Source: Gammaproteobacteria bacterium
GTDB lineage: Bacteria; Pseudomonadota; Gammaproteobacteria; Arenicellales; Poriferihabitantaceae
Direction: 5' to 3'
Length of the DNA: 64,000 bases
NCBI GenBank assembly: GCA_028817405.1
Contig: JAPPPS010000130.1
Location: 6,345 to 70,344 of the forward strand
Positions 1 through 64,000 of the stretch are shown one piece after another. Position numbers and translations under genes: made by a program. How positions within the stretch are numbered: the first letter of the stretch is position 1; each line of letters starts with the position of its first letter. The notes under the pieces were generated by a model, which made no database searches, had not been told where the DNA came from, and saw nothing but the letters and a program-made list of their open reading frames with translations.

Positions 1-408
1 CGGGTCGGCCGACAAAAACAAATGCGCGCCGAATGATTTGACATGCCGGTACGGCGACTGGCCGCCGGTGAAGGCGGCGCGGGTGATGTCCAAACCGTTG
101 TGTTCGATGGACTTGAAAATGCGCAAGCCGGTGTCGGCGCTGTTGCGCGAGAGCAGCACGATTTCGACTTTTTGCGCGCCGTCGCCGCCATCGCCGGCGT
201 TATTCAATCGCAGGAATTTTTCCACCATCGGGAACGCCACGCCCGGCCCCAGCGGCTCGGTCTCGCGCGCGATTTGGTATTTGCTGTACGCGTCCAAACC
301 GTCGTTCTCGAACACCGCGTGGCTGGCGCGCATGTCGAACAGCGCGCGCGAGGAGATGGCGATGACCAACGCGTCGCCGAAGTCGGCCGGCAGCGTGGGC
401 GCGCTCAT
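1..408 (-). CDS. 5'-nucleotidase family protein (runs off window edge)
   Basis: Manual translation from ATG at 408: MSAPTLPADFGDALVIAISSRALFDM...PGVAFPMVEKFL...VEIVLLSRNSADTGLRIFKSI...GLDITRAAFTGG, typical of the family. ATGA overlap with the aroE stop. Confidence 0.8.
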   Translation of the reverse strand, partial: MSAPTLPADFGDALVIAISSRALFDMRASHAVFENDGLDAYSKYQIARETEPLGPGVAFPMVEKFLRLNNAGDGGDGAQKVEIVLLSRNSADTGLRIFKSIEHNGLDITRAAFTGGQSPYRHVKSFGAHLFLSADP

Positions 409-1322
409 GTTTGCCCGGCCCGCAACGCGCGAAGCACCGGCGCGGTGGCCGGCCGCCGCCGGTGCCACAGGTGAAACGACTCGGCCGCCTGCTCGACTAA
501 CATGCCGAGACCGTCGCCGGCGTCCACTGCGCCATGCGCCGTTGCCCAACGCATGAACGCGGTCGGGGCGTCGGCGTACATCAAATCGTACGCCACGCAG
601 CCCGAGCCGATGCAGGCGGCGTCGATGGCCGGGACGGTGTCGTCGATGCCGGCCGAGGTGGCGTTGATGAGCAGGTCAAAATCGCCGTCGAGGTCCGCCA
701 GACCGCAAGCGGTGATGGGGATGCCGCCGCCACCGTCCCCGCCACCGCCACCGTCGCCACCGTCCCCGCCACCGTCGCCACCGTCCCCGCGCAAACTCGC
801 CGCCAATTCCCGCGCTTTGCCGTAGTTGCGGTTGGCGATGGCAAGAAGCGCCGGCCGCCGCTCCAACAACGCCCAAGCCACGCCGCGCGCCGCGCCGCCC
901 GCGCCCAACAACAGCGCGCGCCGGCCCGCGATTTCCCAGCCGCGGTTGTCTTCCAAGTCGCGAATCATGCCGACACCGTCGGTGTTGTCGCCACGCATTG
1001 CGCCGCGCTCGAAACTCACGGTGTTGACCGCCTGCGCCTGCGCCGCGCGCGCGGTCAGGGTGTTGCCCGGCGTGCCGCACAACCGCCACGCCTCGACCTT
1101 GAACGGCAATGTGATGTTGAGGCCCGCGCCGTCGCGCGCGGCGAAATGGCTGACCGCCTGCGCGAAACCGCCGCGCTCGACTTGGATGCGGCGGTAGTCG
1201 ATGTCGAGGTCGAACTGGCGCGCAAATCGGCGGTGAATGCACGGCGAGCGACTATGCGCGACCGGATTGCCCATGACCGCGAAACGGTGGGCGCGCGCGC
1301 GGAAGTCGAACGGGTCGCTCAT
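405..1322 (-). CDS. aroE: shikimate dehydrogenase
   Basis: GNPVAHSRSP, NITLPFK, AVNTV, GDNTDG, LGAGGAARG, INATSAG, YDLMY, DGLGMLVEQAA; contains a GDG-repeat insert. Confidence 0.95.
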   Translation of the reverse strand: MSDPFDFRARAHRFAVMGNPVAHSRSPCIHRRFARQFDLDIDYRRIQVERGGFAQAVSHFAARDGAGLNITLPFKVEAWRLCGTPGNTLTARAAQAQAVNTVSFERGAMRGDNTDGVGMIRDLEDNRGWEIAGRRALLLGAGGAARGVAWALLERRPALLAIANRNYGKARELAASLRGDGGDGGGDGGDGGGGGDGGGGIPITACGLADLDGDFDLLINATSAGIDDTVPAIDAACIGSGCVAYDLMYADAPTAFMRWATAHGAVDAGDGLGMLVEQAAESFHLWHRRRPATAPVLRALRAGQT

Positions 1323-2173
1323 CGGCGCGGCCGGCGCAAGTGCGAGCCGCCGCCCCGCCAGCCGCCACCGCTGTATCCGCCGCCGTGTGAGCCGCCAGCG
1401 TCGCCGCCGCCGCCACCGTAACCCCTCCCGCCGTCGCCATGCGAACCGCCGCCGGCATCACCGTCGCCGCTATAACCGTGCGCGACTTCCCGCTCGCGTT
1501 CAAAGATAAACACCGGCGCATCGGTGCGCAGGAGCAACTCGCCTTGGCTGCGGTTGCTCAAGCCGAACGACGACAGCGGCGCGATTTCGGTCGGCGCGTC
1601 AATCGGATATTTGCACGGCCCGGTCAAGGTGACGGTGGCCGGCGCGAACACCGCCAGACTGAACGCGTTGTGGTTGTGGAGTTGCCACTCGCCTTTGGAG
1701 TAGGCGCGCACATTGTGCTCGAAGCGCAGGCGGGTCGGGGTCTCGCGCGCCGCCAAAAAGTGGTGCGCCTCGCCGAAGTTGAACAGTTCATGGTCGCGGC
1801 GGCCGCCGAGAAAACCCAGTAGCACCACCTCGGCGAACTGCCGCGGAATGCGGCGCAAAACGAACGCCAAGTCCGAGTAGTCCTTTTCCTTCGGCAGGTA
1901 TTGGTCGAGGCGCGACTTCGCCGAGTCGCCGTCGCCGACCGCGATGCCGGGCCGGTCGCGGAAGATGGGGCCGCGGTGGTCGGCCCCGCCGTCGACCCAA
2001 ACCAACGGCTCGCGCAGCCGCCCGGCGCGCGGCGCGCGGCTCAGCACCGGCCCGATGAGGGTCACCTGGCGGCGGTTGGTGAATCGGCGCAAATAGGCGT
2101 CGAGCACGGTGTCGGCGTCGTGGCGGCTGTCGTTGCTTTCGATGCTGTCGTGGCTGTCGTTGCTCATGTTCAT
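1319..2173 (-). CDS. thiN: thiamine pyrophosphokinase-like protein
   Basis: WVDGG, GDGDS, KDYSDL, LGGRRDHELFN and C-terminal FGLSN motifs; repeat-derived N- and C-terminal extensions. Confidence 0.7.
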   Translation of the reverse strand: MNMSNDSHDSIESNDSRHDADTVLDAYLRRFTNRRQVTLIGPVLSRAPRAGRLREPLVWVDGGADHRGPIFRDRPGIAVGDGDSAKSRLDQYLPKEKDYSDLAFVLRRIPRQFAEVVLLGFLGGRRDHELFNFGEAHHFLAARETPTRLRFEHNVRAYSKGEWQLHNHNAFSLAVFAPATVTLTGPCKYPIDAPTEIAPLSSFGLSNRSQGELLLRTDAPVFIFEREREVAHGYSGDGDAGGGSHGDGGRGYGGGGGDAGGSHGGGYSGGGWRGGGSHLRRPRR

Positions 2174-2245: not shown

Positions 2246-3598
2246 ATGCGCGTTCGCAACATCCGCCAGTTTATCCTGCCGCCGCTGATTATAGCGGGCG
2301 GCGCGCTGGTGTTTTGGTATCTCAGCAGCAGCGCGCCGCCGCCGGAACCGCTGCGGGCGGAGACGCGCGCGCCGGTGGTGTCGGTGCGCGCCGCCGAGAA
2401 AGTCACGGCCGCGCCGACCTTGCGCGTGTTCGGCCGGGTGGAATCGCCGACGCGCAGCGTGCTGACCGCCGGCCTCGAGGCCGATGTGGTCGAAGTCGCG
2501 GCCTTGGAAGGCGATGCGGTGCGGCGCGGCCAGGCGTTGGTGGCGTTGGACGCGGCCGATGCCGACTTGCAACTCCGCCAGCGGCGTGCCGAATTAGCCG
2601 ACATCGACGCGCAGTTGGACAGCGAGGAAGTGCGGCAACGCGCCGACATCGACGCGCTGAAAACCGAGGAAGCGTTGCTGGCGTTGCGCGCCCGGGCGGT
2701 TGACCGCGCGGCGCAGTTGGCGCGCAGCCGCAGCGGCTCCGAGGCCGCGCTGGACCAAGCGCGCGAGCAGCATGAGCGGCAACGCTTGGCGGTGCTTCAA
2801 CGCCGCCAGTCCATCGACGACGCGCCGGCCCGCCGCCGCCAACTGCAAGCCCGGCGCGCGCGCGCCGCCGCGGCCGCGCAGCAAGCCGCACGCGACTTGG
2901 CGCGCACCCGCGTGACCGCGCCGTTCAACGGCCGGGTCACGCAGGTTTTTGTGGCGGCGGGCGAGCGCGTGAGCGCCGGCGGCCGCCTGCTGGAACTTTA
3001 TGACGAAGCGCAGTTGGAGTTGCGCGCGCAAGTGCCGAGCGGCCACCTGCCGGCGTTGCGCCGGGCGTTGGCGGCCGGGCGGACGGTGACGGCGGTGGTG
3101 GCACCGGCCGCGGAGGCCGTGGATGCCGATGCCGCGGCCGCCGGCCCCGCGCTGCTGCTGCACCGGTTGTCGGCGCAAGTCGGCTCCGGGCGCGGCGGCG
3201 TCGATGCGTTTTTCCGCGCCGGTGACGGTGCCGGCGACGGTGACGGTGACGGTGCCGGTGCCGGCGGCTTGCCGGTGCCGGGCGCGACTATGGAAATCCA
3301 TCTGCGCCTGCCGCCGCTCGATAATGTGGTGCTTCTCTCGCCGGATTCGTTATACGGCAACGCGCGCATTTATTTGGTGCGCGACCAGAAGTTGCAGGCG
3401 AAGACGGTGCGGCGACTGGGCCGCATCGAGTCCGGCGCCGGCGACGGTGCCGGCGACGGTAATAACGCCGGCGATGGCGACGGCCGTGGTGAAATGTTGC
3501 TCATCGTCGCCGGCGATGATTTCCAGACCGGCGACCTGATTCTCGACTCGCGCCTGCCGCAAGCCATCAACGGTTTGCAAGTGCGAATCGCGCCGTAG
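2246..3598 (+). CDS. RND efflux periplasmic adaptor (membrane fusion protein)
   Basis: N-terminal TM, lipoyl-like motifs (EGDAVRRGQALV; VTAPFNGRV), coiled-coil hairpin; upstream of an AcrB-family gene. Confidence 0.85.
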   Translation: MRVRNIRQFILPPLIIAGGALVFWYLSSSAPPPEPLRAETRAPVVSVRAAEKVTAAPTLRVFGRVESPTRSVLTAGLEADVVEVAALEGDAVRRGQALVALDAADADLQLRQRRAELADIDAQLDSEEVRQRADIDALKTEEALLALRARAVDRAAQLARSRSGSEAALDQAREQHERQRLAVLQRRQSIDDAPARRRQLQARRARAAAAAQQAARDLARTRVTAPFNGRVTQVFVAAGERVSAGGRLLELYDEAQLELRAQVPSGHLPALRRALAAGRTVTAVVAPAAEAVDADAAAAGPALLLHRLSAQVGSGRGGVDAFFRAGDGAGDGDGDGAGAGGLPVPGATMEIHLRLPPLDNVVLLSPDSLYGNARIYLVRDQKLQAKTVRRLGRIESGAGDGAGDGNNAGDGDGRGEMLLIVAGDDFQTGDLILDSRLPQAINGLQVRIAP

Positions 3599-3607
3599 TT
3601 TTCTCCG

Positions 3608-3684
3608 CTGTCACCGTCACCGCCGTCACCGTCGCCACCGTCACCGTCGCCGCCCCCGTCGCCCCCACCGTCGCCCCCGCCCCC
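3608..3684. repeat. intergenic (CCGTCR)n-type low-complexity tract
   Basis: tcaccgtcaccgccgtcaccgtcgccaccgtcaccgtcgccgcccccgtcgcc... Confidence 0.85.
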
Positions 3685-3686
3685 GC

Positions 3687-6888: not shown

Positions 6889-8046
6889 TTAATTGTCGGG
6901 TGGCGGCAGGAGTTCGGTCAAGGCTGCGGCTAATCGTTGCAACTCGTTCGGGTCGGCGGTGGAGGCGTTGATTCGCATGGCCGCCAATCGCTTTTGGTCG
7001 CAGGCGTAACCGTCGCCGAGGGCGTCGGCGGCGTGGCGGGCGCCGGTGGGGTCGTTGCATACCAGCGCCATGTCGCAGCCGGCGTTGAGCGCGGCGATGC
7101 ATCTCGCCGGCATGTCGGCGGCCGCACCGTCGCCGGCGCTGCACACATTGCCCGCACCGTCGCCGGCACCGGCCGCGCTGTCGCCGGCGTTGCCCGTATC
7201 GGCCGCGCCGGCCATGCTGAGGTCGTCGCTGAAAATCATGCCATCGAAACCTAACCGTCCGCGCAGAATTTCGCGCAGCCATATTCGCGAGTAGGTTGGC
7301 GCGCGATGGTCGACGCGCGGGAATTGGATGTGCGCGGTCATGACGCCGCCGGCGCGCGCGGCCAGGCCGGCGAACGGCGCCAGGTCGCGCTTTTCGATGG
7401 CGGATAACGCGCGCGAGTCGACCGGCCGCCGGTGATGCGAGTCGGCATCGACGCCGGCGTGGCCGGGGAAGTGCTTGAGGGTGGCGGCCATGCCGGCGCG
7501 GCGCATGCCGTCGATGAACGCGCCGGCCAACTGGGCCACCGCGGCCGGGTCGCGGTGGAAGGCGCGCGCGCCGATGACCGCGCTGCGCGGGTTTTGGCAA
7601 TCCAGCACCGGGGCGAAACTGCAGTCGATGCCGGTTTGCGCGACTTCGGCCGCCATCAATTGCCCGGCGACGGTGGCGGCGGCGCGGGCGCGAGCGCGGT
7701 CGCGGTCATACAATTCGCCGAGGCGCGCCGGCGCGGGCAGCGGAAAAAATCCGGCGTCGAGACGCTGCACCGCGCCGCCTTCCTGGTCCACCGCGAGCAG
7801 CAACGGCGGCGTACGCAACGCCTTGATTTCGCGGGTTAATTCGCCGATTTGCGCCTTGCTGCGGTAGTTGCGCGCAAACAGCAGCGCCGCGCCGACCGCG
7901 GGGTGGCGGAGCAAATCGGCCTCGGCCGCGGTCAAGGATTCGCCGCGGAGGTCGACCATCAGGGGGCCGAGCGGTTGTTGCGTGGCGGCGACGGTGTTGC
8001 CCGCGGCGCCGGTCGCCGCCAAAGAAACGCCATCCGCATCAGCCAT
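6889..8046 (-). CDS. nagZ: beta-N-acetylhexosaminidase (GH3)
   Basis: VDQEGGAVQR, KHFPGH, VDADSH, MTAH, IFSDDLSM; start set at ATG 8046. Confidence 0.92.
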   Translation of the reverse strand: MADADGVSLAATGAAGNTVAATQQPLGPLMVDLRGESLTAAEADLLRHPAVGAALLFARNYRSKAQIGELTREIKALRTPPLLLAVDQEGGAVQRLDAGFFPLPAPARLGELYDRDRARARAAATVAGQLMAAEVAQTGIDCSFAPVLDCQNPRSAVIGARAFHRDPAAVAQLAGAFIDGMRRAGMAATLKHFPGHAGVDADSHHRRPVDSRALSAIEKRDLAPFAGLAARAGGVMTAHIQFPRVDHRAPTYSRIWLREILRGRLGFDGMIFSDDLSMAGAADTGNAGDSAAGAGDGAGNVCSAGDGAAADMPARCIAALNAGCDMALVCNDPTGARHAADALGDGYACDQKRLAAMRINASTADPNELQRLAAALTELLPPPDN

Positions 8047-8554
8047 GAATATCCACCGTCGTGCCGACCGCGACGCGGTCGAACAAATCCACGACATCGC
8101 GGTTGCGCATGCGAATGCAGCCGCGCGAGCCGGGCCGCCCCATGCTCACATCGTCCGGCGCGCCGTGGATGTAGATGTAGCGGCGCATGCTGTCGACTTG
8201 GCCGAGGCGGTTGCGGCCCGGTTCGCAGCCGCTGAGCCACAGGATGCGGGTGAGAATCCAGTCGCGCTGCGGGGCCGCGGCGCGCATCGCGACGGTGAAA
8301 ATCTCGCCGGTCGGTCGGCGCGCGACGAACACCCCGCCGAGCGGCGCGCCGCCGCCGATTTTGGCGCGAATGATGTGGCGGCCGCGCGGCGTGCGAAAAC
8401 TGCCGTTGACTTCGCCCGCGCCGTTGGCCGCGGTGGACACGCGGTATTGGATGGCCGCGCCGTCGCCGCCGTCGGCTCCGGCATCGCTGAACAGCGTCAG
8501 CGTCTGGGCCGGGAGGTCGACGCGGATGCGCGGTGGTTGCGCGGGCGAATTCAT
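8039..8554 (-). CDS. L,D-transpeptidase (YkuD family)
   Basis: TPRG, YIYIHG...GSRGCIRM motif. Confidence 0.85.
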   Translation of the reverse strand: MNSPAQPPRIRVDLPAQTLTLFSDAGADGGDGAAIQYRVSTAANGAGEVNGSFRTPRGRHIIRAKIGGGAPLGGVFVARRPTGEIFTVAMRAAAPQRDWILTRILWLSGCEPGRNRLGQVDSMRRYIYIHGAPDDVSMGRPGSRGCIRMRNRDVVDLFDRVAVGTTVDIHG

Positions 8555-9105
8555 CGCGGCCGGTCGCCGGAGTCGAGGTGGTCGCCAGAGTCACGGTGGT
8601 CACGGTGGTCACCGTGGTCGCCGTGGTCGCGGTAGCCGAGGTGGTCGAGCAAGTCGGCGCAGGCGCGCTCGATTAAATCCAGCGCGCGGTCGAAGCCGGC
8701 GGCATCGCCGTAATACGGGTCGGGGATTTCGTCGTCGCGGTTTGCGCCGGGCGCGAGCAGCAGGCGGACTTTGTGACGGTGTTTGGCGCCGGCCAAGCGC
8801 GTGAGGTCGGCATGGTTGGCGCGGTCCATGGCGATGATGTGGTCGAATCGCGCGAGGTCGGCGGCCGCGATTTGGCGCGCGCGCAGGCCGCTTAAGTCGA
8901 CGCCGCGCCGCGCTGCGGCGCGTTGCGCGCGACCGTCCGGGCGCGCGCCGAGATGCCAGTCGCCGGTGCCGGCCGAGTCGATTTCAAACCGCGCGCCGAG
9001 TCCGCGAGATTCGACTTGCGCGCGGAACACGCCCTCGGCGGTCGGCGACCTGCAGATGTTGCCGAGGCAGACGAATAGGATGCGGTGGACGGTGGGTGAA
9101 TTCAT
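8551..9105 (-). CDS. low-molecular-weight protein-tyrosine phosphatase
   Basis: CLGNICRSP active-site loop, DSAGT, IPDPYYG. Confidence 0.92.
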   Translation of the reverse strand: MNSPTVHRILFVCLGNICRSPTAEGVFRAQVESRGLGARFEIDSAGTGDWHLGARPDGRAQRAAARRGVDLSGLRARQIAAADLARFDHIIAMDRANHADLTRLAGAKHRHKVRLLLAPGANRDDEIPDPYYGDAAGFDRALDLIERACADLLDHLGYRDHGDHGDHRDHRDSGDHLDSGDRPR

Positions 9106-9186: not shown

Positions 9187-11529
9187 TTAAGCGCGCGACA
9201 AATGCAGCACCGAATCTTCGGCATGCAGCCGGCGCATGATGGCCGCCAAGTGTTTGCGCCCGGTGACTTCGATGATGAACGACATCGACGACGAGTTGTG
9301 ATGCTGCGGGTCGACTTGCAAGTTGTTGATGTTGGATTCGTGCTCGGCGATGATGTTGCTGACGCGCGCGAGAACCCCGGGCTGGTCGCGGGTTTCCATC
9401 TTCACCGTGACTTGAAACTTGCCCTGCGTCGATTCCGACCACGCGAGATGAAAACAGTTGTCCGGATGACGCATGATTTCGCGGCGATTGGGGCAGTTGG
9501 AACGGTGCACAACCAAACCGCGGCCGGTGGTCATGGCGCCGATAATCGGGTCGCCGGGAATGGGGTGACAACAACTCGCATGCGTGACCAACAATCTTTC
9601 GGTGCCTTCGATGGTCATGGCCGCGGGTTTGTTATCACCGTCGCCGCTGTTGCCGCGGTTTTTGCCGTCGAGGTTTTGCGTCTCGGCAATCAATTGTTTG
9701 GCGACCAAAGTCGGCAAGCGGCGGCCGAATCCGATGTCGCGCAGTAATTGATTCCAGTCGTCCATCTGCAAGTGCTGCAGCAGCGTTACTTTATGCGCGC
9801 TGGGGATGCGCATGCGCCGGTAGCCTTGTTTGCCGAGAGATTGCTTCAAAAGTTTGCCGCCCAACTTGAACGACTCTTTGTCTTTTTGACGGTTGAGAAC
9901 ATGTCGAATCGCCGAACGCGCTTTGGAAGTGACCGCGTAGTCCAGCCACGCCGGCAACGGCCGCGCGCTGCGCGAGGTGACGATTTCCACATGGTCGCCG
10001 TTGTTCAATGTTTCATGCAGCGGCACCATGTACTGGTTGATGCGCGCGCCGATGCAGCGGTTGCCGACGCCGGTGTGCACCGCGTACGCGAAGTCCAACG
10101 CCGTGGCCCCGCGCGGCAGGCGTTTGATGTCGCCTTTGGGCGTGAACACATACACTTCGTCCGGAAACAAATCCGCCTTCAAGTGTTCCAAAAACTCGCC
10201 GGAGTCGCCGGACTCCTGCTGCGACTCAAGAAAACTGCTGAGCCACTGCTGCGCCAACTGCTGCGGCGCATGCTCGCCGGTGGTCTCGGTTTTATACAAC
10301 CAGTGCGATGCCACGCCGTTCTCGGCCACGCGGTGCATCGCGCGGCTGCGAATTTGCACTTCAACCGACTGACCGAACGGTCCGATAACTACGGTGTGCA
10401 GCGATTGGTAACCGTTGACCTTGGGGATGGCGATGTAGTCCTTGAAACTTTCCGGGCGCGGTTTGTATAACTGGTGCATGACGCCGAGCGCGTGGTAGCA
10501 CTGCGGCCGGGTTTCGGTGACGATGCGAATCGCGTTGATGTCCTGCACTTCGCGCAACAATAATTTCTTCTGCCGCATCTTGCGGTAGATGCTGTAAATG
10601 TCTTTTTCCCGGCCGCTGACTTCGGCGTCGATGCCGGCGCGCTCCAGTTCGGCGCGGGTGCGGTCGCACAACTCGCCGAGCACCGATTTGCGTCCGCGCT
10701 TTTTGCCGCTCAACTTTTTGGCGATGGCGTTGTAGCGTTTGGGGTAGAGCGTCGACAATCCTAAGTCTTCAAGTTTCTGCGCCAAGTCGCGCATGCCGAG
10801 GCGGTTGGCGATGGGCGCGTAAATCTCCAGCGTCTGACGGGCGATGCGGCGGCGTTTTTCCGCGCGCAGCGGCGTCAAGGTGCGCATGTTGTGCAGGCGG
10901 TCGGCGAGTTTGATGATGATGACGCGCAAGTCTTTGGCGGTGGCCATGAACATCTTGCGAAACGATGCGGCCTCGGCGTGCTTCGGTTCCATCTCCAGTT
11001 GGCTGACCTTGCTGACGCCGTCGACCAACGCCGCCACATCGTCGCCGAAACGCCCGGCCACTTGGGCCACGGTGATGTCGGTGTCCTCGACCACATCGTG
11101 CAGCACCGCGGCGATGATGGTGCGGCTGTCCATGCGCATCTCGCCGAGGATGCGCGCCACCGCCAGCGGGTGGTCGATGTACGCCTCGCCGCTGATGCGC
11201 GTCTGCCCGGCATGCGCCTCGGCGCCGAAGCGGCAGGCGTCGCGGATGTCGGCCACCGCGGCCTCGCCGAGGTAGGCGCGCAAGTCGTCGAGCAGCGCAT
11301 CCAGCAGCGCGCGACTGCGGCGGCCGGCCGGCCGCCACGGCCGCGAGTCGCCGGGCAACTCTGACACCTTTGGCTGTTTTGACCTGGGCGGAACGAGCGC
11401 TTTCGGCGGCAAGCCCGGTGCCGCCAACCCCGCGGCCGCCGGCCGGCTTGGCGCGGCCGCGGCCCGGAGCGCGGTCGCCTCAGGCGGAGTCCGTTTCCAG
11501 CGTCGGCTCAGCGGCAGCCGGCTCGGCAC
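9187..11529 (-). CDS. spoT: bifunctional (p)ppGpp synthetase/hydrolase; true start probably downstream of 11529 (e.g. GTG 11367)
   Basis: HD domain ([20 protein letters not shown]), synthetase, TGS (VYVFTPKG) and ACT domains; follows rpoZ. Confidence 0.95.
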
Positions 11530-11809: not shown

Positions 11810-11961
11810 GTTGCTTTCCTCTCTGCGTTGAAGGGTGAAAGTTGAACGGCCGCCATTTTACGGCGACCGCTGTTGCTACTGTGTCACTGTCGTGTCACTG
11901 TCGAATTCATGGTTTCATTCATCGCGCGGTTCATCGCCGCCGGAATCAACCGTCGCCGGAG

Positions 11962-12543
11962 TCAACCGTCGCCGGAATCAACCGCCACCGGCAACACCGC
12001 TTCGAGTTCCGCCAGCGCACGGTCGAACTGCTCGTTGACGATGATGTAATCATACTCGTTTGCGTGGCTCATTTCATCCCGCGCCGCGCGCATGCGTTCG
12101 GCGATGACCGCATCGGCGTCTTGGCGGCGCGCGCGCAGCCGCTGCTCCAGCGCATCCAACGACGGCGGCATCACGAACACCGACTTGGCGGCCGGAAACT
12201 GGCGGCGCACCGCGCGCGCGCCCTGCCAGTCGATTTCCAAGATAGCATGTTTGCCGCGCGAAATCAGCGCCTCAATCGCATCCGCCGAAGTGCCGTAGTG
12301 GTTGCCGAACACGCTCGCGTATTCGATGAACCGGCCGGCCGCAATCATCGCCGCAAACGCGGCCGCGTCGACGAAATAATAATCCACGCCGTGCGTCTCG
12401 CCGGGCCGCTGCGCGCGCGTGGTATGCGACACCGCCAGCGCGGCATCCGGCCGCCTGGCCACCAGTCGCCGCGCCAAACTGGTCTTGCCGGCCCCGGACG
12501 GCGCGGAGAGAATGATGACCGCGGGGGAGGGGGAGTCGTTCAT
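11962..12543 (-). CDS. gmk: guanylate kinase
   Basis: SAPSGAGKTS P-loop, SHTTRAQRPGE, YGTS, LEIDWQGA; ATG at 12543 overlaps the upstream TAA. Confidence 0.95.
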   Translation of the reverse strand: MNDSPSPAVIILSAPSGAGKTSLARRLVARRPDAALAVSHTTRAQRPGETHGVDYYFVDAAAFAAMIAAGRFIEYASVFGNHYGTSADAIEALISRGKHAILEIDWQGARAVRRQFPAAKSVFVMPPSLDALEQRLRARRQDADAVIAERMRAARDEMSHANEYDYIIVNEQFDRALAELEAVLPVAVDSGDG

Positions 12544-14544: not shown

Positions 14545-14693
14545 CGGTGTTGTCGGCGGCGACGGTGGATGCGACGGTGTTGCGACGGTGGGCGCGTTGG
14601 TGGCGACGGTGTTGCGACGGTGGGCGTGTTTGTGGTGACGGTGTGGCGGCGGCGGGTGGACCCGCGATGACCTTACGATGACCTACGATGACA
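14545..14693. repeat. intergenic tandem repeats
   Basis: two ~33-bp copies of gcgacggtgttgcgacggtgggcg..., then atgacc(t)tacg x2.5. Confidence 0.75.
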
Positions 14694-15960: not shown

Positions 15961-16050
15961 TTCCCACCGCCACGCCCACAGTCCGCCCCCACCCGCCACG
16001 CCCGCACCTCACCCACCCGCCACGCCCGCAGGCTGTTAAGCGGGCGCCAG
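15961..16050 (+). repeat. REP-like palindrome copy preceded by two partial copies
   Basis: cgccacgcccgcaggctgttaagcgggcgc at 16018-16047; partial ccgccacgccc units at ~15966 and ~15993. Confidence 0.75.
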
Positions 16051-18087: not shown

Positions 18088-18597
18088 ATGAAAAACAAAA
18101 ACGCCCTCACCGTCCGCTCCAACCCGGGTTTAGCCGAACTCAAACGCGCGGAAAATCTCCTCCGAATCACTTCGGAGATACTCGGCAAATCGATTGTGCC
18201 TGGCCACAACCGCACCGATGAACAGGGGCGGAAGCAGGGACATTGGGTTGAGCGGTTTGCCATTGGCTTTGGGGGAGACTTTGTGGAAGAAGATCCATAT
18301 GTTGACGGCGAGAGGCACGGCCACTGGGTTGAGCGGTGGGCTGGCACTGTGCGGGAAGGTCCATATGTGAACGGCAAGAGGCACGGCCATTGGGTTGAGC
18401 GATGCAGCGTTGGCAGTGTGTGTGAAGGCACATATGTTGACGGCAAACGGCATGGCCATTGGGTTAGGCGGTTTGCCAGTGGCAATGTGGATGAAGGCGC
18501 ATATGTGGACGGCAAAGAGCACGGCCGTTGGGTTGTGCGGACACCGGACGGAACAGAATGGACAATAAATTGGCGTCACGGGGAAATCGTGGAATAA
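18088..18597 (+). CDS. MORN-variant repeat protein, paralog 1 (5 repeats)
   Basis: ~23-aa repeats EGxYVDGKRHGHWVER; start set at ATG 18088 by match to paralog 2. Confidence 0.8.
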   Translation: MKNKNALTVRSNPGLAELKRAENLLRITSEILGKSIVPGHNRTDEQGRKQGHWVERFAIGFGGDFVEEDPYVDGERHGHWVERWAGTVREGPYVNGKRHGHWVERCSVGSVCEGTYVDGKRHGHWVRRFASGNVDEGAYVDGKEHGRWVVRTPDGTEWTINWRHGEIVE

Positions 18598-21531: not shown

Positions 21532-21545
21532 TATAATAAAGCATG
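21532..21545 (+). promoter_or_regulatory. -10 box 5 nt before glnE ATG (leaderless-like)
   Basis: TATAAT-aaagc-ATG. Confidence 0.5.
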
Positions 21546-37283: not shown

Positions 37284-37422
37284 TGGGATTTCCTCCGAAT
37301 GGAATGGAAGTTTAAGAAAGGGATGCGCGATGCGGTGAACTTTGTTGCATGCATCGCGCGGGGTTTATGCGACGGTACTGTTTATGCAGCGCCGTCGCCG
37401 TTACCGTTACCGTTCGTTACCG

Positions 37423-41154: not shown

Positions 41155-41199
41155 GCGAAGAGTATAGCCGTGGGGTGGCGCGCCCGCTCAACAGAACGC

Positions 41200-41300
41200 G
41201 GGCGTGGCGGCTTGTGGTTGCGGGCGTGGCGGCTTGTGGTCGCGGCGTGGTGGTCTTTGGCCGGGCGCGTGGTCTTTGTCGCGGCGTGGTGGCTTTGACC
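41200..41300. repeat. intergenic ~21-22-bp tandem repeats
   Basis: gcgggcgtggcggcttgtggt x2, followed by gcgtggt(g)gtctttg variants. Confidence 0.75.
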
Positions 41301-41423
41301 GTTCATGCCGGGCGCACGGTATTTGACCGTTTAATAACCACTATACTTCGCGCGCGACAGTTTCCCGCATGCCCGAAGCCAAACCCCGGCGCAACGCATC
41401 CGCGCATCCACCCGAAAAACCCC

Positions 41424-44967: not shown

Positions 44968-49177
<4,210 letters not shown>

Positions 49178-49178
49178 C

Positions 49179-50624
49179 ATGCAGCAAGCGAGCGCCAAAC
49201 CGGTTGCCGCGCAAAACGGCGATGATGTTTTTTTGCATCGGATTGGCGCACTCGATGCGGCATTGCTCGACCGCTACCGTGACAAGATTGCCGTTGACCC
49301 CGCCCTGACCCGCCGCATCGTCAGTTTCCAAGCCAACAAAAACCGGCGGTATTACCGCTGGTATAAGTATAAGGAAGCCTTTTCCGCCGAATTGGTGGAG
49401 CGCCTTTTGCGCGTGTACCGGGTTGGACAAGGCAAAATACTGGACCCTTTCGCCGGCGCCGGCACCGCGTTGTTCGTGTCTTCCAACTTAGGGTATGACG
49501 CCGATGGCGTGGAACTCATGCCGGTCGGGCAAAAAATCATCGCCGCCAATGTCGCGGCGCGGGGGGCGAACCGCGGCGGTATTGTCTCGGCAATCGACGA
49601 ATGGCTGAAAAAGTCGCCGTGGAAAACCAAAGGCAAAGCGAAACAATTCGGCGTCCTTCGAATCACCGACGGCGCTTATCCTCAATCCACGCGCGAACGG
49701 ATTGGCCGTTATCTTCATGAGATGGAGAAACAGCCGGCCGAGGCCAAGGAAATTTTGCGGTTTGCGTTGCTTTGCGTTCTTGAGACGGTCAGTTATACGA
49801 GAAAGGACGGGCAGTGCCTGCGCTGGGATTACCGGTCAGGCCGGGGCAACGGCAAGAACAACTTTAACAAAGGCGCGCTCCCGTCTTTTGACGATGCCAT
49901 CAGGGAAAAGTTGTCGCAGATAAGCGCTGATTTGACGCGTTCCGGCTGCACCGACAGTTTCTTGTCGCTGGTGCCGACGGCGCGCAAAGCCGGGCGGATT
50001 AATTTGCTGCGGGGGTCATGCCTCGATATTTTGCCGGGCATCGCGGCCGGCGCTTACAGCGGCATCGTGACCTCGCCGCCTTACTGCAACCGCTACGACT
50101 ACACGCGGACCTACGCGCTGGAGCACGCCTTGCTTGGGGTCAGCGAAGCCGAACAAGTCGCGCTGCGGCAAGCGATGTTGAGTTGCACGGTGGAAAACAA
50201 GGAAAAACGGTTGAGCGATGCGAATCCCGAATGGGGCGGCGCGCTGGCGGCCTGCGACGGCATCCCGTTGCTGCGGGAAATTCTGCGCTATCTGGATGAC
50301 AAGCGGGAAAAGCGGCAACTCAACAACCCGGGCATTGCGCGCATGGTGCGCGGCTATTTCTGCGAGATGGCATGCGTGATTTATGAATGCCACCGCGTGT
50401 TGCGCGGCGGCGGCGTGATGTTCATGGTCAATGACAATGTGAGGTACGCCGGCGCGTCCATATCGGTTGATGCGATTCTGTCCGCCATCGCCGAGAGCGT
50501 GGGGCTGCAAGTGGATGCCATTCTGGTTCTGCCGCAGGGCAAAGGCAACAGTTCGCAGCAGATGGGCGCGCATGGACGCGAAGCGCTTCGCAAATGCGTT
50601 TATGTGTGGCGGAAAGCCGCTTAG
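49179..50624 (+). CDS. amino-DNA methyltransferase (probable m4C) of a type II R-M system
   Basis: ILDPFAGAGT (motif I) before VTSPPY (motif IV); adjacent to a BsoBI-like endonuclease. Confidence 0.88.
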   Translation: MQQASAKPVAAQNGDDVFLHRIGALDAALLDRYRDKIAVDPALTRRIVSFQANKNRRYYRWYKYKEAFSAELVERLLRVYRVGQGKILDPFAGAGTALFVSSNLGYDADGVELMPVGQKIIAANVAARGANRGGIVSAIDEWLKKSPWKTKGKAKQFGVLRITDGAYPQSTRERIGRYLHEMEKQPAEAKEILRFALLCVLETVSYTRKDGQCLRWDYRSGRGNGKNNFNKGALPSFDDAIREKLSQISADLTRSGCTDSFLSLVPTARKAGRINLLRGSCLDILPGIAAGAYSGIVTSPPYCNRYDYTRTYALEHALLGVSEAEQVALRQAMLSCTVENKEKRLSDANPEWGGALAACDGIPLLREILRYLDDKREKRQLNNPGIARMVRGYFCEMACVIYECHRVLRGGGVMFMVNDNVRYAGASISVDAILSAIAESVGLQVDAILVLPQGKGNSSQQMGAHGREALRKCVYVWRKAA

Positions 50625-50660
50625 ACGGTCGCTCAACGATCGCTTAGACAGTCGCTCAAC
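50618..50660 (+). repeat. 20-bp direct repeat pair between the M and R genes
   Basis: cgcttagacggtcgctcaac (50618-50637) / cgcttagacagtcgctcaac (50641-50660). Confidence 0.85.
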
Positions 50661-51614
50661 ATGCCGAACAAGCGCATCCATTCTCCTCAAGACTTGGTCA
50701 CGCCCCGCGCCGAAATCCGCGCTGGGTTTATTGCGCTGGCGTTGGAGAAGACCAAGGAGTCGACGCCGGTTGTCGACCAAGGCCGGGCGCTTAAAGCGCT
50801 CGCTTCCAACGCCAAAAATCCGCAAGCGTTGAGCGCCATCAAGGAAATTCGCGGCGCATTACTGACCGCCGCCGGGCTGTCCGATAAAGCGAAAAATTAT
50901 TTGACCGATTCGGATAAAACAAAAGCCATCAAGAAATTGATTGATGAATTTCTTGCGCCCGAAGGCGGCAACTTTGTCGATGAATTGGTGTACCGGTTTT
51001 TGCTGACCCGCGGCGATTCCCTCGGCGGAAAGATGCGAAACCTCGCCGGCCGACTCGGCGAACACCGTTTCATTCGCATGTTGGCGGCGACTTGCGCCGT
51101 CAGCGGTATAAGCGTCCAATACCTCGATGCCAACGGTGGCGAGTGGCGCGTCGGCATTGAGAATGCGGCCGCGGGAAAAGTCAAAGCGTTGCGCTGGGAG
51201 TCCAACGCAAACGCCCGCACCTTGGTCTGCAACCGAACCGTGCCCATCGTGCGAAAGAATGTGGATTTTTGCCTGCTCGATGGCGCGATGGATGAAGTGT
51301 CGAGCAAAAGCGGGCGGGTCGCGATATGGACCGACCCGCAAAAATATCTCGCGCTCGGCGAGTTAAAAGGCGGCTTTGACCCCGCCGGAGCCGATGAACA
51401 CTGGAAAACCGCGAACTCCGCGTTGTCCAGAATTCGCGAGTCTTTTAAGAAGCGCGGGGTTAATCCCGGCACTTTTTTCATCGGCGCGGCCATCGAGAAC
51501 GCGATGGCGGATGAAATTTATCGCCAGTTAAAAAACGGTTCGCTCTCGAACGCCGCCAACCTCACCAACAAGAATCAAGTCGTTGCTTTGTGTGATTGGC
51601 TGATTCGCATGTGA
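50661..51614 (+). CDS. type II restriction endonuclease, BsoBI/AvaI family
   Basis: RAGFIALALEK, GDSLGG.MRN.AG, KNVD, LGELKGGFDPAGADEHWKTA, FIGAAIE match the recalled BsoBI sequence. Confidence 0.9.
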   Translation: MPNKRIHSPQDLVTPRAEIRAGFIALALEKTKESTPVVDQGRALKALASNAKNPQALSAIKEIRGALLTAAGLSDKAKNYLTDSDKTKAIKKLIDEFLAPEGGNFVDELVYRFLLTRGDSLGGKMRNLAGRLGEHRFIRMLAATCAVSGISVQYLDANGGEWRVGIENAAAGKVKALRWESNANARTLVCNRTVPIVRKNVDFCLLDGAMDEVSSKSGRVAIWTDPQKYLALGELKGGFDPAGADEHWKTANSALSRIRESFKKRGVNPGTFFIGAAIENAMADEIYRQLKNGSLSNAANLTNKNQVVALCDWLIRM

Positions 51615-53333
51615 ATGACGATGCCAAGCGACCGTATTCTCATCCTCGACTTCGGCGCGCAGTATGCGCAGTTGATTGCGCGCGGGGTGCGCGAGTTGGG
51701 GGTGTATTGCGAGATTTATGCGTGGGATGCGGCGTTTGATGACATCGCGGCGTTTGCGCCGGACGGGTTGATTCTGTCCGGCGGGCCGGCCTCGGCGCGC
51801 GGCGTTGATGGCGAAACCCCGGCCGCGCCGGGCGCGCCGGTTACGGTGAACGCGCAAACCCCGGCCACGCCGGTCACGGTGAGCGCACAAACGCCGGCCG
51901 CGCCGGTCACGGTGAACTCGCAAACGCCGGACTCGCCGGTCACGGTGAACTCGCCAACCGCGGCCATGACAAACGCGCAAGCCCCGGCCGCGCCGGCCGA
52001 AATTTTCGGCATGGGGAAGCCGGTGCTCGGCATCTGCTACGGCTTGCAAACCATGGCCGCGCAGTTGGGCGGGGCGGTGGAGTCGGCCGACCGTCATGAG
52101 TACGGCCACGCGCGCATCGAAACTTGCGCCGACAGCCGGTTGCTCGGCGCGAGCGGCGCGGCGTTGGATGTGTGGATGAGCCACGGCGACCGTGTGACAC
52201 AGTTGCCGGCCGGCTTCCAAACCATCGCCGCCTCCGCCAACGCGCCGTTCGCCGCCATCGCCGACGAAGCGCGGCGCTTCTACGGCGTGCAGTTCCACCC
52301 GGAGGTGACGCACACCGCCGGCGGGCGCGAAATCTTGTCGCGGTTCGTGCATGAGGTATGCGGCTGCGGACGCGACTGGGTGCCGGAAAACATCATCGAC
52401 CGCATCGTCGCCGACGCGCGCCGGCAAGTCGGCGACGATGCGGTGGTGTTGGGGTTGTCCGGCGGCGTCGACTCGGCGGTGACCGCGGCGCTGCTGCATA
52501 AAGCCATCGGCGCGCAACTGACTTGCATCTTTGTCGACACCGGCCTGCTGCGGTTGAACGAAGGCGACTTGGTTATGCGCGCCTTCGCTGAGCATTTGGG
52601 GGTGCGCGTGATTCGAGTCGATGCCGAAGCGCGGTTTCTGGAACGCTTGAAAGGCGTCACAGACCCGGAACGCAAACGCCAACTCATCGGCAACTTGTTC
52701 GTGGAAATCTTCGAGACGGAAGCCAAGCGCATCGACGCCGCCAAGCATCTCGCGCAAGGCACCATCTACCCGGATGTCATCGAGTCGGCCGGCCACGCGC
52801 ACGGCGCGGCGCGGGTGATTAAATCGCATCACAATGTCGGCGGCTTGCCGGCGCGCATGCAACTCAAACTGCTGGAGCCGCTGCGCGAGTTGTTCAAGGA
52901 CGAGGTGCGCAAAATCGGTTTGCAACTCAACTTGCCCGCGGCCGTCATCGCGCGCCATCCGTTCCCCGGGCCCGGCCTCGGTGTGCGCATCCTCGGCGAA
53001 GTCAAAAAAGAATACGCCGACTTGTTGCGCCAGGCCGATGCGATTTATCTCGAAGAGTTGGAGAAGCACGGTTGGTATCACAAAGTCAGCCAGGCGTTTG
53101 CGGTGTTTTTGCCGGTCAAGTCGGTCGGCGTGGTCGGCGACAACCGCGCGTACGAATTCGTCATCGCGTTGCGCGCGGTGGAGACGGTCGACTTTATGAC
53201 CGCAAAGTGGGCGCGCCTGCCGTATCCGTTGCTGGAGAATATCTCCACGCGCATCATCAACGAAGTGCGCGGCATCAGTCGCGTGGTCTACGACATCTCC
53301 GGCAAACCGCCGGCGACGATTGAATGGGAATGA
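51615..53333 (+). CDS. guaA: GMP synthase (glutamine-hydrolysing) with repeat insert
   Basis: [49 protein letters not shown]. Confidence 0.97.
51813..51995 (+). repeat. 33-bp in-frame tandem repeat (~4.5 copies) inside guaA
   Basis: [44 protein letters not shown]. Confidence 0.9.
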
Positions 53334-55321: not shown

Positions 55322-56512
55322 ATGACTTCCGCCACTTCCGCCGCCACCGATGTCTATTTGGAACGCCCGTGGCTCGACGCCGCGGCCGAGCCGTTTATTC
55401 GCATTCAGGGGGTCAGCAAGCGTTTCGGCGATTTCACCGCGGTCGAGAATGTCGACCTGGACATTTACCGCGGCGAGTTGTTTTCACTGTTGGGCGGCTC
55501 CGGTTGCGGCAAGACCACGCTGCTGCGCATGTTGGCCGGGTTTGAGACGCCCACGGTCGGGCGCATCACCATCGACAACGCCGACATGACCGAGGCGCCG
55601 CCGTACCAGCGCCCGGTCAACATGATGTTTCAATCATATGCGTTGTTCCCGCACATGAATGTGGCCGACAATGTCGCTTACGGTTTGAAGCGCGACCGCG
55701 TGCCGAAGAATGAAATCGCCCGGCGGGTGGCGGAAATTTTAAGCATGGTCGAGTTGCAGGAATTCGGCAAACGCAAACCGCACCAGTTGTCCGGCGGCCA
55801 GCGCCAGCGCGTGGCGCTGGCCCGGGCCCTGGTCAAGCAACCCAAGGTGCTGCTGCTGGACGAGCCGCTGGCGGCGCTCGACAAACGCCTGCGCGAGCAG
55901 ACGCAGTTTGAACTGATGAACTTGCAGGAGCGACTCGGCGTCACTTTCATCGTGGTCACGCACGACCAGGAGGAGGCGATGACGCTGTCCACGCGCATCG
56001 CGGTGATGGACGCCGGGCGCATCATTCAAGTGGGCGAGCCGGGCGAAGTCTACGAGCGGCCAAAGACGCGCAAAATCGCCAACTTCATCGGCAGCATCAA
56101 CACTTTCGACGGCCGCATCGTCACCGTCGACGGTGACGCCGGCGAACTGGCGTTATCCTGCCCGGCATTTTCATCGCCGCTGAAGGTGCCGCGCGAGGCC
56201 GACTTGAAAGCCGGCCAAAAAGCGACTCTCGCCATCCGCCCGGAAAAAATCATGATGAGCAAAGACGCGCCCGAAGACCGGGCGTTGGCGCGCCTGCAAG
56301 GCGAGGTGGTCGAGTTGGCGTATATGGGCAACCTGTCGATTTACCGGGTGCAAGTCGACGGCGACGGCGGCGACAACAACGATGGTGACGGCGGCGACAT
56401 TATCCAAGTGACGGCGCCGAACTTGCAGCGCGTCGACCGCCGCAACATCGAATGGGACGACCGCGTGTGGCTGAGTTGGCGGCCGGACAACAGTTTCATT
56501 CTGCGCGACTGA
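55322..56512 (+). CDS. potG: polyamine ABC ATP-binding subunit
   Basis: [36 protein letters not shown]. Confidence 0.88.
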   Translation: MTSATSAATDVYLERPWLDAAAEPFIRIQGVSKRFGDFTAVENVDLDIYRGELFSLLGGSGCGKTTLLRMLAGFETPTVGRITIDNADMTEAPPYQRPVNMMFQSYALFPHMNVADNVAYGLKRDRVPKNEIARRVAEILSMVELQEFGKRKPHQLSGGQRQRVALARALVKQPKVLLLDEPLAALDKRLREQTQFELMNLQERLGVTFIVVTHDQEEAMTLSTRIAVMDAGRIIQVGEPGEVYERPKTRKIANFIGSINTFDGRIVTVDGDAGELALSCPAFSSPLKVPREADLKAGQKATLAIRPEKIMMSKDAPEDRALARLQGEVVELAYMGNLSIYRVQVDGDGGDNNDGDGGDIIQVTAPNLQRVDRRNIEWDDRVWLSWRPDNSFILRD

Positions 56513-62846: not shown

Positions 62847-62879
62847 GTCGCGTTGCGCAACTCGATTCCGTTGTTCCCG

Positions 62880-64000
62880 ATGGTCGCGATGATTCGGCGT
62901 TTGCCAGGCCGGCGTTTTTTGCCGCGGCGTTTTGCGTTGCCGCGGTTGCAATTCCGCGCCATGTTGTTGGCCGCGGTCACCGTCACCGTCGCGAGCATCA
63001 CCGTGGCGTGGTCACCAACCGCCGCCGCGCATCACCTCCTGCCGCAGCACCACCTGCAGTGCAGCGCGAACTTCCCGTGCCCGCCGGAGATTCGCCCGCG
63101 CGTGCATTTTTGGATTGAAGTGTTTCGCAGTTGGGGGCAGGGCGTCGCGGTGCTGCACGACCCGGCCCGGCCGGAGCGCGTGTATGCGGTGGTCGACACC
63201 GGCCACGGTTGCAACCGCCCGGCCCGCGCGCAAATCAAACGCGAGCGCGAACGGGTGCGCCAATCGTTGCGCCAAGTGGCGGGGAAAATCGAAGCCGGTC
63301 ACGAAATCACCTCCACCGGCGAACGCCACTTGGCGGCGTTGTTCCCGGCCAACGGCGCGCGCGAAATTCGCGCCGCGGCGCGCGACATCCGCTGCCAAAG
63401 CGGCGTGCGCGACAGTTTTTTGCGCGGCTTGGCCGGCTACGAGAAGCACCGTCCGATGGTGAGTCGCATCTTGGCGGAGAACGGTTTGCCGGCCGAAATT
63501 CGCTACCTGCCGTTCGTGGAATCGTCATACAACCCGGCCGCGTATTCCAAGGCCGGCGCGGCCGGCATCTGGCAAATCATGCCGAAAACCGCGCGCCATC
63601 TCGGCTTGGAACTCAGCGCCACATTGGACGAGCGCCTCGACCCGGAGGCCGCCACCCGCGCCGCGGCCGCGTACTTAAAACGCGCCGACAGCGCGCTGAC
63701 CGCGGTCGCGCGCGAGACCCGGCCCGGCATCGGCCGCGCGCAGTTGAACCCGTTCATCATCACCTCCTACAACTACGGCGTGACCGGCATGAAGCGCGCC
63801 ATGCGCAAGGTTGGCCCCGACTTTATGCGCGTGCTGGACCGGTACAAATCGCCGCGGTTCCAAATCGCGGTGAAGAATTTCTACGCCAGTTTTCTCGCCG
63901 CGCGGCATGTCGCGCGCAACGCCGACGCGTATTTCGGCGCGCGCTCGGTGGCCACGGCCGCGGCCGCGCGCGAGCAAACCGTGCTGCTGCGGCATGCGGT
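62880..64000 (+). CDS. lytic murein transglycosylase (MltD-like), truncated by window end
   Basis: manual translation: ...LPFVESSYNPAAYSKAGAAGIWQIMP...DERLDP...SYNYG. Confidence 0.85.
   Translation, partial: MVAMIRRLPGRRFLPRRFALPRLQFRAMLLAAVTVTVASITVAWSPTAAAHHLLPQHHLQCSANFPCPPEIRPRVHFWIEVFRSWGQGVAVLHDPARPERVYAVVDTGHGCNRPARAQIKRERERVRQSLRQVAGKIEAGHEITSTGERHLAALFPANGAREIRAAARDIRCQSGVRDSFLRGLAGYEKHRPMVSRILAENGLPAEIRYLPFVESSYNPAAYSKAGAAGIWQIMPKTARHLGLELSATLDERLDPEAATRAAAAYLKRADSALTAVARETRPGIGRAQLNPFIITSYNYGVTGMKRAMRKVGPDFMRVLDRYKSPRFQIAVKNFYASFLAARHVARNADAYFGARSVATAAAAREQTVLLRHA

Follow-up and report, generated by a model that had tools for sequence, protein, structure and literature searches.

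How can one short DNA motif enter conserved housekeeping genes again and again without breaking their reading frames? This question is raised by a 64,000-nucleotide (nt) stretch of a gammaproteobacterial genome (assembly GCA_028817405.1, contig JAPPPS010000130.1, positions 6,345 to 70,344; hereafter the window), in which a first-pass annotation had noted degenerate tracts of the hexamer GACGGT (complement ACCGTC) in about 20 genes and had proposed seeding or slippage that is tolerated in surface loops. We counted about 17 affected genes within the 64 kb, consistent with this figure, and nearly all of the annotated tracts were recovered by repeat finding, translation and Pfam assignment of the hosts, either exactly or a few bases off. 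According to our analysis, the tracts are likely to be lineage-specific hexamer micro- and minisatellites that were grown by slippage, are poorly handled by mismatch repair and have been filtered by selection for frame and for a Gly-Asp reading.

The host assembly comprises 2.86 Mb in 160 contigs with 63% G+C and is 93% complete. SpoT of this genome shares 61-80% identity with proteins from sponge-associated metagenome-assembled genomes (MAGs) labelled Arenicellales, Candidatus Poriferihabitaceae or Candidatus Spongiihabitans, and the sequencing runs in which the window was found are sponge metagenomes. A tract was defined as at least three GACGG within 18 nt; arrays were taken from Tandem Repeats Finder (TRF), host genes in the window from Pfam and encoded peptides from six-frame translation. 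Genes were called genome-wide by a crude procedure based on open reading frames (ORFs), which gave 77% coding sequence. For comparison we used the nearest species (G003, 80-88% nucleotide identity), a congener (G011), 60 relatives for the count of a 15-mer, and a close strain represented by the independent MAG GCA_028817585.1, which is 97.24% identical over 11.3 kb.

One hexamer family at hundreds of sites

Genome-wide, 436 strict tracts were found where Markov simulations predict about 17, and 243 tracts have at least four units, against about one expected. The 12-mer GACGGTGACGGT occurs in 402 copies, compared with 50 expected under an order-5 Markov model. GACGGT/ACCGTC is the top unit among the period-6 arrays (216 of 682, about one third) and also forms part of the most frequent 9- and 12-nt units, with many derivatives of 9, 12, 21, 27 and 33 nt; perfect higher-order duplications of 21 and 27 nt indicate recent block duplications. 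The number of arrays declines roughly geometrically with the number of units (193, 111, 52, 22, 26, 12 and so on), and apart from a few hairpins no conserved 14-mers were found to flank the tracts. Short units arranged head to tail, strain differences by whole units that exceed the background, and the lack of fixed boundaries, all of which are seen here, are the properties of micro- and minisatellites.

Per 100 kb of sequence there are 7.5 GACGGT arrays here and 1.0 in G011 (counted over 400 kb), and the 15-mer GACGGTGACGGTGAC is present in 143 copies, against 0-28 in the 60 relatives, whose matches cluster at few loci. A protein measure that makes no use of the DNA motif, a Gly/Asp-rich 10-mer, picks out 373 of 1999 called genes (18.7%) here and 6 of 206 (2.9%) in G011. 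Orthologues carrying the same inserts, which the first-pass annotation had named as counter-evidence, did not turn up in these two species: at the matching sites both G003 and G011 are devoid of tracts. In DNA alignments with G003, the missing segments amount to 75 and 63 nt in a glucose-methanol-choline (GMC) oxidoreductase gene, 30 and 27 nt in the MlrC gene, 42 nt in a GFO/IDH/MocA oxidoreductase gene, 96 and 42 nt in a TANGO2/NRDE-family gene, 162 nt in guaA, and 21, 18 and 18 nt in glnE. At the protein level, inserts of at least three amino acids (aa) are specific to our genome in 20 cases and to G003 in 9; against G011 the numbers are 19 and 6, and many of the inserts specific to the relatives are artefacts of N-terminal ORF extension. 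In the alignments of GlnE and AroE the inserts occupy positions that are variable across the family, and at the tract site of topoisomerase III, G003 has a loop of equal length that is built from a different unit, GACGGCGGG. Judged from these alignments, the tracts appear as a recent and lineage-specific gain.

Independent assemblies and runs also contain the tracts, which speaks against an assembly artefact, the other counter-evidence named by the first-pass annotation. The close strain carries arrays at the same sites, and both array edges are found in Logan contigs that stem from the runs of at least four studies and from several hosts, the contigs being broken inside perfect repeats. Between the window and the close strain we found 10 indels, 7-8 of them inside arrays, with lengths of 3, 6, 9, 9, 9 and 12 nt for the coding ones; the +12, +6, -9 and -9 nt differences of the strain sit exactly at tracts. 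Mismatches are denser in tracts as well (3.6-26%, against 2.8% overall), reaching up to ten times the background; the aroE tract, for example, has equal length in the close strain and 26% mismatches. Other strains and metagenomes added indels of 6, 3 and 7 nt and a 78-nt duplication at array sites.

Reading frame, growth of the arrays and alternative explanations

About 80% of the tracts lie in coding sequence, a share equal to that of random positions, and non-coding DNA holds 88. By frame, the coding tracts read Gly-Asp in 231 cases, Thr-Val in 51, Pro-Ser in 34, His-Arg in 18, Ala/Val-Thr in 12 and the frame that contains TGA in 2; because the gene caller is crude, the genome-wide frame percentages are only approximate. 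The Gly-Asp frame makes up 66% of coding tracts, compared with 29% for isolated GACGGT hexamers, in line with the earlier remark that internal inserts mostly use this frame. The further proposal that the DNA motif spreads and not the peptide is borne out by the presence of the hexamer family in all stop-free frames and in non-coding DNA, and by the use of the rare glycine codon GGT, which encodes 66% of Gly in motif-defined tracts, 41% in peptide-defined Gly-Asp windows and 11% genome-wide.

The spacing of units, which the first-pass annotation had suggested examining for multiples of three, distinguishes coding from non-coding tracts: it is a multiple of three in 98.7% of cases in Gly-Asp tracts and in 74.8% in non-coding ones. 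The frame is kept across 155 tracts and changed at 18, most of the examined ones being gene junctions, and the search for frameshifts or pseudogenes at tracts gave at most a handful of candidates. Gly-Asp tracts lie on the leading strand in 58% of cases, as do the genes (58%), so that no replication-strand bias of array orientation is seen beyond the bias of the genes. Orientation thus goes with the strand of the gene rather than with that of replication, and taken together these patterns point to undirected insertion with subsequent selection on frame and peptide. In co-directional spacers, a crude genome-wide count gave no preferred orientation of arrays (10 versus 11); several arrays directly upstream of start codons read ACCGTC on the sense strand.

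Two known classes of repeat do not describe the Gly-Asp tracts. Phase-variable contingency loci would not show the multiple-of-three spacing and the kept frames reported above, and calcium-binding repeats of the RTX type occur in secreted proteins and have a hydrophobic position and a 9-residue GGxGxDxUx register that the tracts lack, the hosts here being cytosolic enzymes.

How such an insert may be accommodated is illustrated by AroE. An otherwise confident AlphaFold2 model built with 31 homologues (predicted local distance difference test score, pLDDT, 87.9; predicted template modelling score, pTM, 0.86) places the insert residues 182-197 in a coil between helix 167-179 and strand 203-207, with pLDDT below 50, and the insert is accordingly predicted to be a disordered loop. 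This location, together with the unit-step indels between strains, speaks for slippage tolerated in surface loops as originally suggested.

We envisage the following course. On a core unit GACGGT (complement ACCGTC), from which higher-order units of 9, 12, 21, 27 and 33 nt would be built, arrays would arise and change their length through slipped-strand mispairing or unequal exchange during replication or repair, with no need for an enzyme encoded by the element itself. The bacterial MutS protein, as known from E. coli, handles loops of more than about 4 nt poorly, so slippage of a hexamer needs no repair defect; loops of at least 6 nt could escape repair, which would let arrays grow despite intact mutS and mutL. 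Insertion would be blind to genes, and selection would then purge arrays that break the frame or encode something harmful, such purifying selection presumably being weak in a host-restricted symbiont. The survivors within genes would be nearly only multiples of three, mostly in the Gly-Asp reading, which is flexible, hydrophilic and free of stops, and they would sit in surface loops and termini that were variable before. As to the rare codon, folding predictions gave -25.1 kcal/mol (z -4.4) for (GGCGAC)10, -7.2 for (GGTGAC)10 and 0 for (GTCACC)10. Arrays of the GGC type form stable hairpins in these predictions, and structure-forming arrays are expected to be prone to deletion; the rare GGT version may for this reason prevail over GGC, in that GGT-rich arrays could outlast synonymous, codon-preferred GGC ones through lacking stable single-strand hairpins.

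Defective repair and retroelements, both raised by the first-pass annotation, are not evident as causes. The mutS and mutL genes are intact and uninterrupted, with the Walker A motif in mutS and the nuclease motif DMHAAHERITYE in mutL, while each has an insert of its own: the mutS ORF (contig C115:2660-5608) a Gly-Asp tract near the C-terminus, before the C-terminal domain, and mutL (contig C126:2420-4564) a Gly-rich insert after the ATPase domain. Nor does a loss of ExoVII or RecQ apply, since this genome and its relatives have both xseA and recQ. Searching the assembly, which is 93% complete, we found no match to the reverse transcriptase family PF00078, which leaves no basis for diversification by a retron or a diversity-generating retroelement, and none to the Y1 transposases (PF01797) to which the REP-associated tyrosine transposases (RAYTs) belong. 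A repetitive extragenic palindrome (REP) or REPIN system with its RAYT is not what we see here, the tracts themselves not being hairpins.

Several points weigh against slippage as a complete account. The closest species have the same repair genes and 10-25 times fewer arrays, which suggests that some lineage-specific factor is missing from the explanation; slippage also does not account for the dominance of a single motif over hundreds of unlinked loci, nor for the seeding of arrays where the nearest relative shows no obvious proto-repeat. The escape of 6-nt loops from repair in this organism is taken over from E. coli. Some of the 'coding' tracts outside the Gly-Asp frame probably stem from spurious ORFs of the crude caller, which is a further reason to read the frame percentages as approximate, and translation of the tracts is deduced from open frames alone; metatranscriptome contigs include almost none of this organism and are uninformative on transcription through the tracts. 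Finally, short-read assemblies leave it uncertain how many copies a long perfect array, for example that of the GMC gene, exactly has.

The gaps in the slippage account are where a motif-specific, active seeding would fit, in which an enzyme or recombination pathway recognising GTGACGG/CCGTCAC adds or copies hexamer units and slippage merely modulates them. The dominance of a single motif and the clean, empty orthologous sites of G003, with no evident seed, are what it would predict, but overall we regard it as unlikely. In a variant of this idea, pieces of arrays would be moved between loci by template switching. The heptamer that would be recognised is also the base of the hairpin CCGTCAC-GCCCGC-AGTCTGTTAA-GCGGGC-GTGACGG. 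The corresponding REP-like family (CCGYCAC-GCCCGC-AGTCTGTTAA-GCGGGC), the base of whose stem contains the array core CCGTCAC, is indeed expanded here, with 115 pattern matches, and confined to a sub-clade (35 in G009, 8 in G003, 5 in G008 and at most one in other genomes). Members of one hairpin subfamily (CGTCACCCCCGC...GCGGGGGCGGTGAC) are embedded in frame in Gly-Asp arrays, 12 of its 28 copies lying within 120 nt of a tract, and 5-10% of tracts have a half-site no farther than 60 nt away, compared with 2% of random positions. This leaves more than 90% of tracts with neither hairpin nor half-site nearby, too many for the hairpin to be their general vector. G009, moreover, has its 35 hairpins yet just four copies of the 15-mer; hairpin spread alone therefore does not give arrays, and we regard the hairpin as a passenger or cousin of the arrays. 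The tracts have no conserved ends, and the absence of a RAYT/IS200-type transposase and of a reverse transcriptase from the 93%-complete assembly also counts against seeding. A related and quite improbable possibility is that arrays and hairpins, which share GTGACGG/CCGTCAC, were co-amplified in the sub-clade by a sequence-aware DNA transaction without RAYT or reverse transcriptase; this could be, for example, a repeat-adding or template-switching pathway driven by a nickase or a polymerase. If so, arrays would be written into genes and not merely slip, and the in-frame hairpin copies would use them as landing pads.

Selection at the protein level, with Gly-Asp loops serving as acidic disordered 'bristles' for solubility, as cation-binding loops or in interaction with the host, would account for the strong over-representation of the Gly-Asp frame and for the many genes with a Gly/Asp-rich 10-mer, and relatives too have Gly-rich loops at the aroE and topoisomerase III sites. 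We nevertheless consider it very unlikely: identical DNA occurs in intergenic regions and in the Thr-Val, Pro-Ser and His-Arg frames, glycine is encoded by its rare codon, the tracts occur in cytosolic housekeeping enzymes that are unrelated to each other, an RTX-like GGxGxDxUx periodicity is lacking, and the arrays vary freely in length and sequence between strains that are 97% identical, unlike a conserved functional loop. That the tracts are an artefact of assembling or sequencing a short-read MAG is scarcely credible. The assembly is fragmented (160 contigs) and k-mer contigs break within perfect arrays, so the longest copy numbers may be wrong, but an independent MAG and the runs of several studies and host species carry tracts at matching sites, and the tracts keep reading frames, which an artefact would not. 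Growth by slippage with subsequent selection is thus the explanation that we prefer for the tracts described below.

Tracts and neighbouring features of the window

The hosts confirmed by Pfam are shikimate dehydrogenase, an HlyD-type membrane-fusion protein, NagZ, a low-molecular-weight phosphotyrosine phosphatase, SpoT, GlnE, AmtB, two GMC oxidoreductases, a GFO/IDH/MocA oxidoreductase, a TANGO2/NRDE-family protein, MlrC, topoisomerase III and a PotG-like ATPase. To those listed by the first-pass annotation we add the tail of a TPK-like protein, a YkuD gene, one more GMC gene, guaA and the N-terminus of an SLT-domain protein.

At the left end, aroE (405-1322) has its in-frame Gly-Asp tract at 717-797 on the minus strand, with a 21-nt unit repeated 2.2 times at 100% identity, and the adjacent TPK-like gene (1319-2173) encodes a Gly-rich C-terminal tail (1388-1477, minus strand). 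The gene for the HlyD-type membrane-fusion protein (2246-3598) has two plus-strand tracts, RAGDGAGDGDGDGAGAGGL at 3215-3271, which is longer by 12 nt (CGGTGACGGTGT) in the close strain, and SGAGDGAGDGNNAGDGDG at 3431-3484, a 16-aa insert that is absent from G011 and longer by 6 nt (GACGGT) in the strain. Between its stop codon and the start of an RND pump gene lies an intergenic array of the GTCACC/GTCGCC type (3605-3686), whose C-rich strand is the sense strand; here the close strain shows a 3-nt and a 1-nt indel and 15% mismatches. In nagZ (glycoside hydrolase family 3, GH3; 6889-8097), an Ala/Gly/Asp insert of 26 aa (7126-7203, minus strand) is not found in G011 and has a 9-nt indel in the strain. 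The phosphatase gene (8551-9105) ends in a C-terminal tail (8557-8628, minus strand) built of the 9-mer GACCACCGT and read as DHGDHGDHRDHRD; this 9-mer variant in the Asp-His/Asp-Arg reading comprises 24 aa without counterpart in G011, and the strain has lost one 9-nt unit (-CCGTGGTCG). The insert annotated in spoT at about 9630-9670 did not convince us, as it involves few residues and differs by 4 aa from G011.

The annotated intergenic relatives of the tracts were all located, at 3605-3686, 11881-11991, 14554-14656 and 37390-37442. Their periods are 11, 16 or 7 nt, values not seen within genes; the array at 14554-14656 has an 11-nt unit (GCGACGGTGTT) and a 32-nt higher-order unit. The 11- and 16-nt arrays (14554-14656 and 11881-11991) might act as phase-variable loci. 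Two arrays of a different kind, at 18296-18540 and 20139-20499, consist of a 69-nt (23-aa) repeat reading ...HGHWVERxADGxVWEGPYVDGER..., which we take to be reminiscent of MORN-type repeats; they lie in a stretch of lower G+C (12-21 kb, 53-58%), and the ORFs tried gave no Pfam match.

The glnE gene (21543-24725) has five to six short, lineage-specific inserts rich in Gly, Asp and Ala between 22329 and 24032 on the plus strand, located approximately at 22329-22355, 23113-23133, 23616-23648, 23847-23882 and 23976-24032. The gene itself is missing in 9 of 11 congeneric genomes, several of them complete, and present here, in G003 and in G011, a pattern that points to differential loss of glutamine-synthetase adenylylation control in the genus. 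The window holds composite repeats resembling REPs or miniature inverted-repeat transposable elements at 24737-25126, 15963-16031 and 39615-39791, among them a 208-bp tandem duplication of such a composite just after glnE. This system combines tandem half-sites CCGCCACGCCCGCAG, the hairpin GCCCGC-AGTCTGTTAA-GCGGGC and a module AATTAAAGACTCTGGA(C/T)TCCGG with about 130 copies; within the genus the family is limited to a few species, and a search for a RAYT gene gave none. For amtB (25550-27190, minus strand) the gene call was right, whereas the coding location of its tract was not: the higher-order 27/36-nt array of GACCACCGT and GACGGT units (26824-26944) is placed upstream of a likely TTG start and signal peptide, both deduced by reading the sequence. 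It is for this reason probably part of the 5' untranslated region, between amtB and a divergent gene for a class IV aminotransferase.

The first GMC oxidoreductase gene (29614-31209) has a short Gly-Asp tract (30517-30558, minus strand) with an 18-nt insert specific to our genome. In the second (31206-33056), likewise on the minus strand, a (GGTGAC)n array (31608-31703) accounts for the 75 nt and the C-terminal tail (31214-31289) for the 63 nt not in G003; both edges of the array were seen in independent metagenome runs. A (CCGTTA/CCGTCA)n array (37390-37458, minus strand) covers the C-terminus and stop codon of the GFO/IDH/MocA gene (37423-38592) and extends into the spacer; 53 nt of it, which is not a multiple of three, are absent from G003, and other strains have a 6-nt indel. 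The internal Gly-rich tract of this gene (38245-38313, minus strand) includes the 42-nt insert. The TANGO2/NRDE-family gene (40255-41154) is interrupted in the Thr-Val/Ala frame by the 96-nt insert (40831-40926, minus strand) and has the additional 42-nt insert at 40431-40472; strains differ at the tract by a duplication and indels.

In the gene for MlrC, an M81 peptidase (41175-42992), the two plus-strand tracts are found at 42309-42359 (with the 30-nt insert) and at 42449-42475, the latter being the 27-nt insert with three copies of the 9-mer TGACGGTGT, read as DGVDGVNRG. Tandem repeats of 22 and 19 nt at 41197-41297, upstream of the conserved part of MlrC, where other strains have a deletion of about 62 nt, probably belong to a variable 5' region rather than to coding sequence. 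The tract of the topoisomerase III gene (44968-47622; tract 46129-46185, plus strand) splits the Topoisom_bac match and shows a GGC indel in other strains. In guaA (51615-53333), an in-frame 33-nt minisatellite of 4.2 copies (51811-51972, plus strand) makes up the 162 nt not in G003; it lies inside the amidotransferase region, reads PA(T/A)PVTVN(A/S)QT and is tied to the hexamer family via GTCACGGTGAAC. Between guaB and guaA, at 49179-51614, a restriction-modification unit is encoded, consisting of an N6/N4 DNA methylase and a BsoBI-family endonuclease (PF09194, E 7e-124); the block is wholly absent at the matching site in G003. Further tracts are VDGDGGDNNDGDGGDI within the TOBE domain of the potG-like ABC ATPase gene (55322-56512; tract 56354-56401, plus strand) and (GTCACC)2.5 in the N-terminal region of the SLT-domain gene (62976-63005, plus strand), read as VTVTVASITV. 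Outside the window, the assembly contains about 145 copies of the CRISPR repeat GTTTCAATCCACGCGCCCCGTGAGGGGCGCGAC, of which the window has none.

Related repeats and biological meaning

Our literature searches turned up no account of such repeats from Poriferihabitaceae or Spongiihabitans. Mrazek and colleagues are said to have surveyed simple sequence repeats (SSRs) with long motifs across prokaryotes in 2007. The Rickettsia palindromic elements (RPEs), to which the tracts had been likened, are reportedly discrete, about 100-150 bp long, palindromic in structure and conserved in sequence (Ogata et al., in 2000). The likeness holds as far as selfish or neutral, lineage-specific DNA is inserted in frame at tolerant surface positions of conserved housekeeping genes. 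It fails for the element itself, as our tracts have variable lengths, no shared ends and array strands with little or no self-structure, which makes a mobile element of the RPE type an unsuitable model; because the tracts are not discrete elements, the comparison is just an analogy. The part that does resemble RPEs is the small hairpin subfamily within some arrays, at a third of RPE size.

In Plasmodium falciparum, housekeeping proteins carry Asn/Lys-rich low-complexity inserts that are ascribed to slippage and weak selection. Like the tracts, these inserts are lineage-specific, length-polymorphic loops of biased composition at variable surface positions of conserved enzymes. They are eukaryotic, AT-driven and made from many triplet motifs, whereas the tracts belong to a GC-rich bacterium and derive from a single hexamer with a rare codon.

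The nearest described situation is the proliferation of SSRs in host-restricted bacteria, as in Burkholderia mallei. Strain ATCC 23344 has 12,547 SSRs, of which 76% lie in genes and whose units are up to 14 nt long (PMC1574311); slipped-strand mispairing was invoked there, units of 6 and 12 nt change amino acids in frame, and mut genes are present (PMC1574311). Both organisms have tandem repeats in genes roughly according to the coding fraction, in-frame changes of 6 and 12 nt, and mut genes. Unlike B. mallei, our genome is dominated by one hexamer family, with one third of period-6 arrays and nearly all top 9- and 12-mers; its coding arrays almost never shift the frame, as the 7- and 8-nt units of B. 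mallei do; and it is that of an uncultured sponge symbiont whose proteome is marked throughout by Gly-Asp loops (in about 19% of called genes). A single short motif amplified genome-wide as tandem arrays in one lineage is also known from the short tandemly repeated repetitive (STRR) heptamers of cyanobacteria and the TAACTGA direct repeats of Beggiatoaceae, which have 7-nt units and are essentially intergenic (PMC4679880). The unit here is 6 nt long instead, a multiple of three, so that arrays can live in genes and be translated.

The process therefore belongs to a known class, in which tandem repeats driven by slippage are sorted by selection, and it is unusually pure and extensive here. For practical purposes, the arrays are usable as strain markers for sponge-symbiont populations; they are also a likely cause of assembly fragmentation in the clade, and in annotation they will inflate protein lengths and split domain matches. 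For the biology of the organism, about one in five genes, among them aroE, glnE, guaA, mutS and the topoisomerase III gene, carries a Gly-Asp low-complexity loop that the sister species lack. Mutation and selection are cleanly separated in this genome, the motif landing everywhere while frame, orientation and multiples of three are imposed later, and the symbiont offers a natural experiment on the extent to which ordinary enzymes put up with loops inserted at random.

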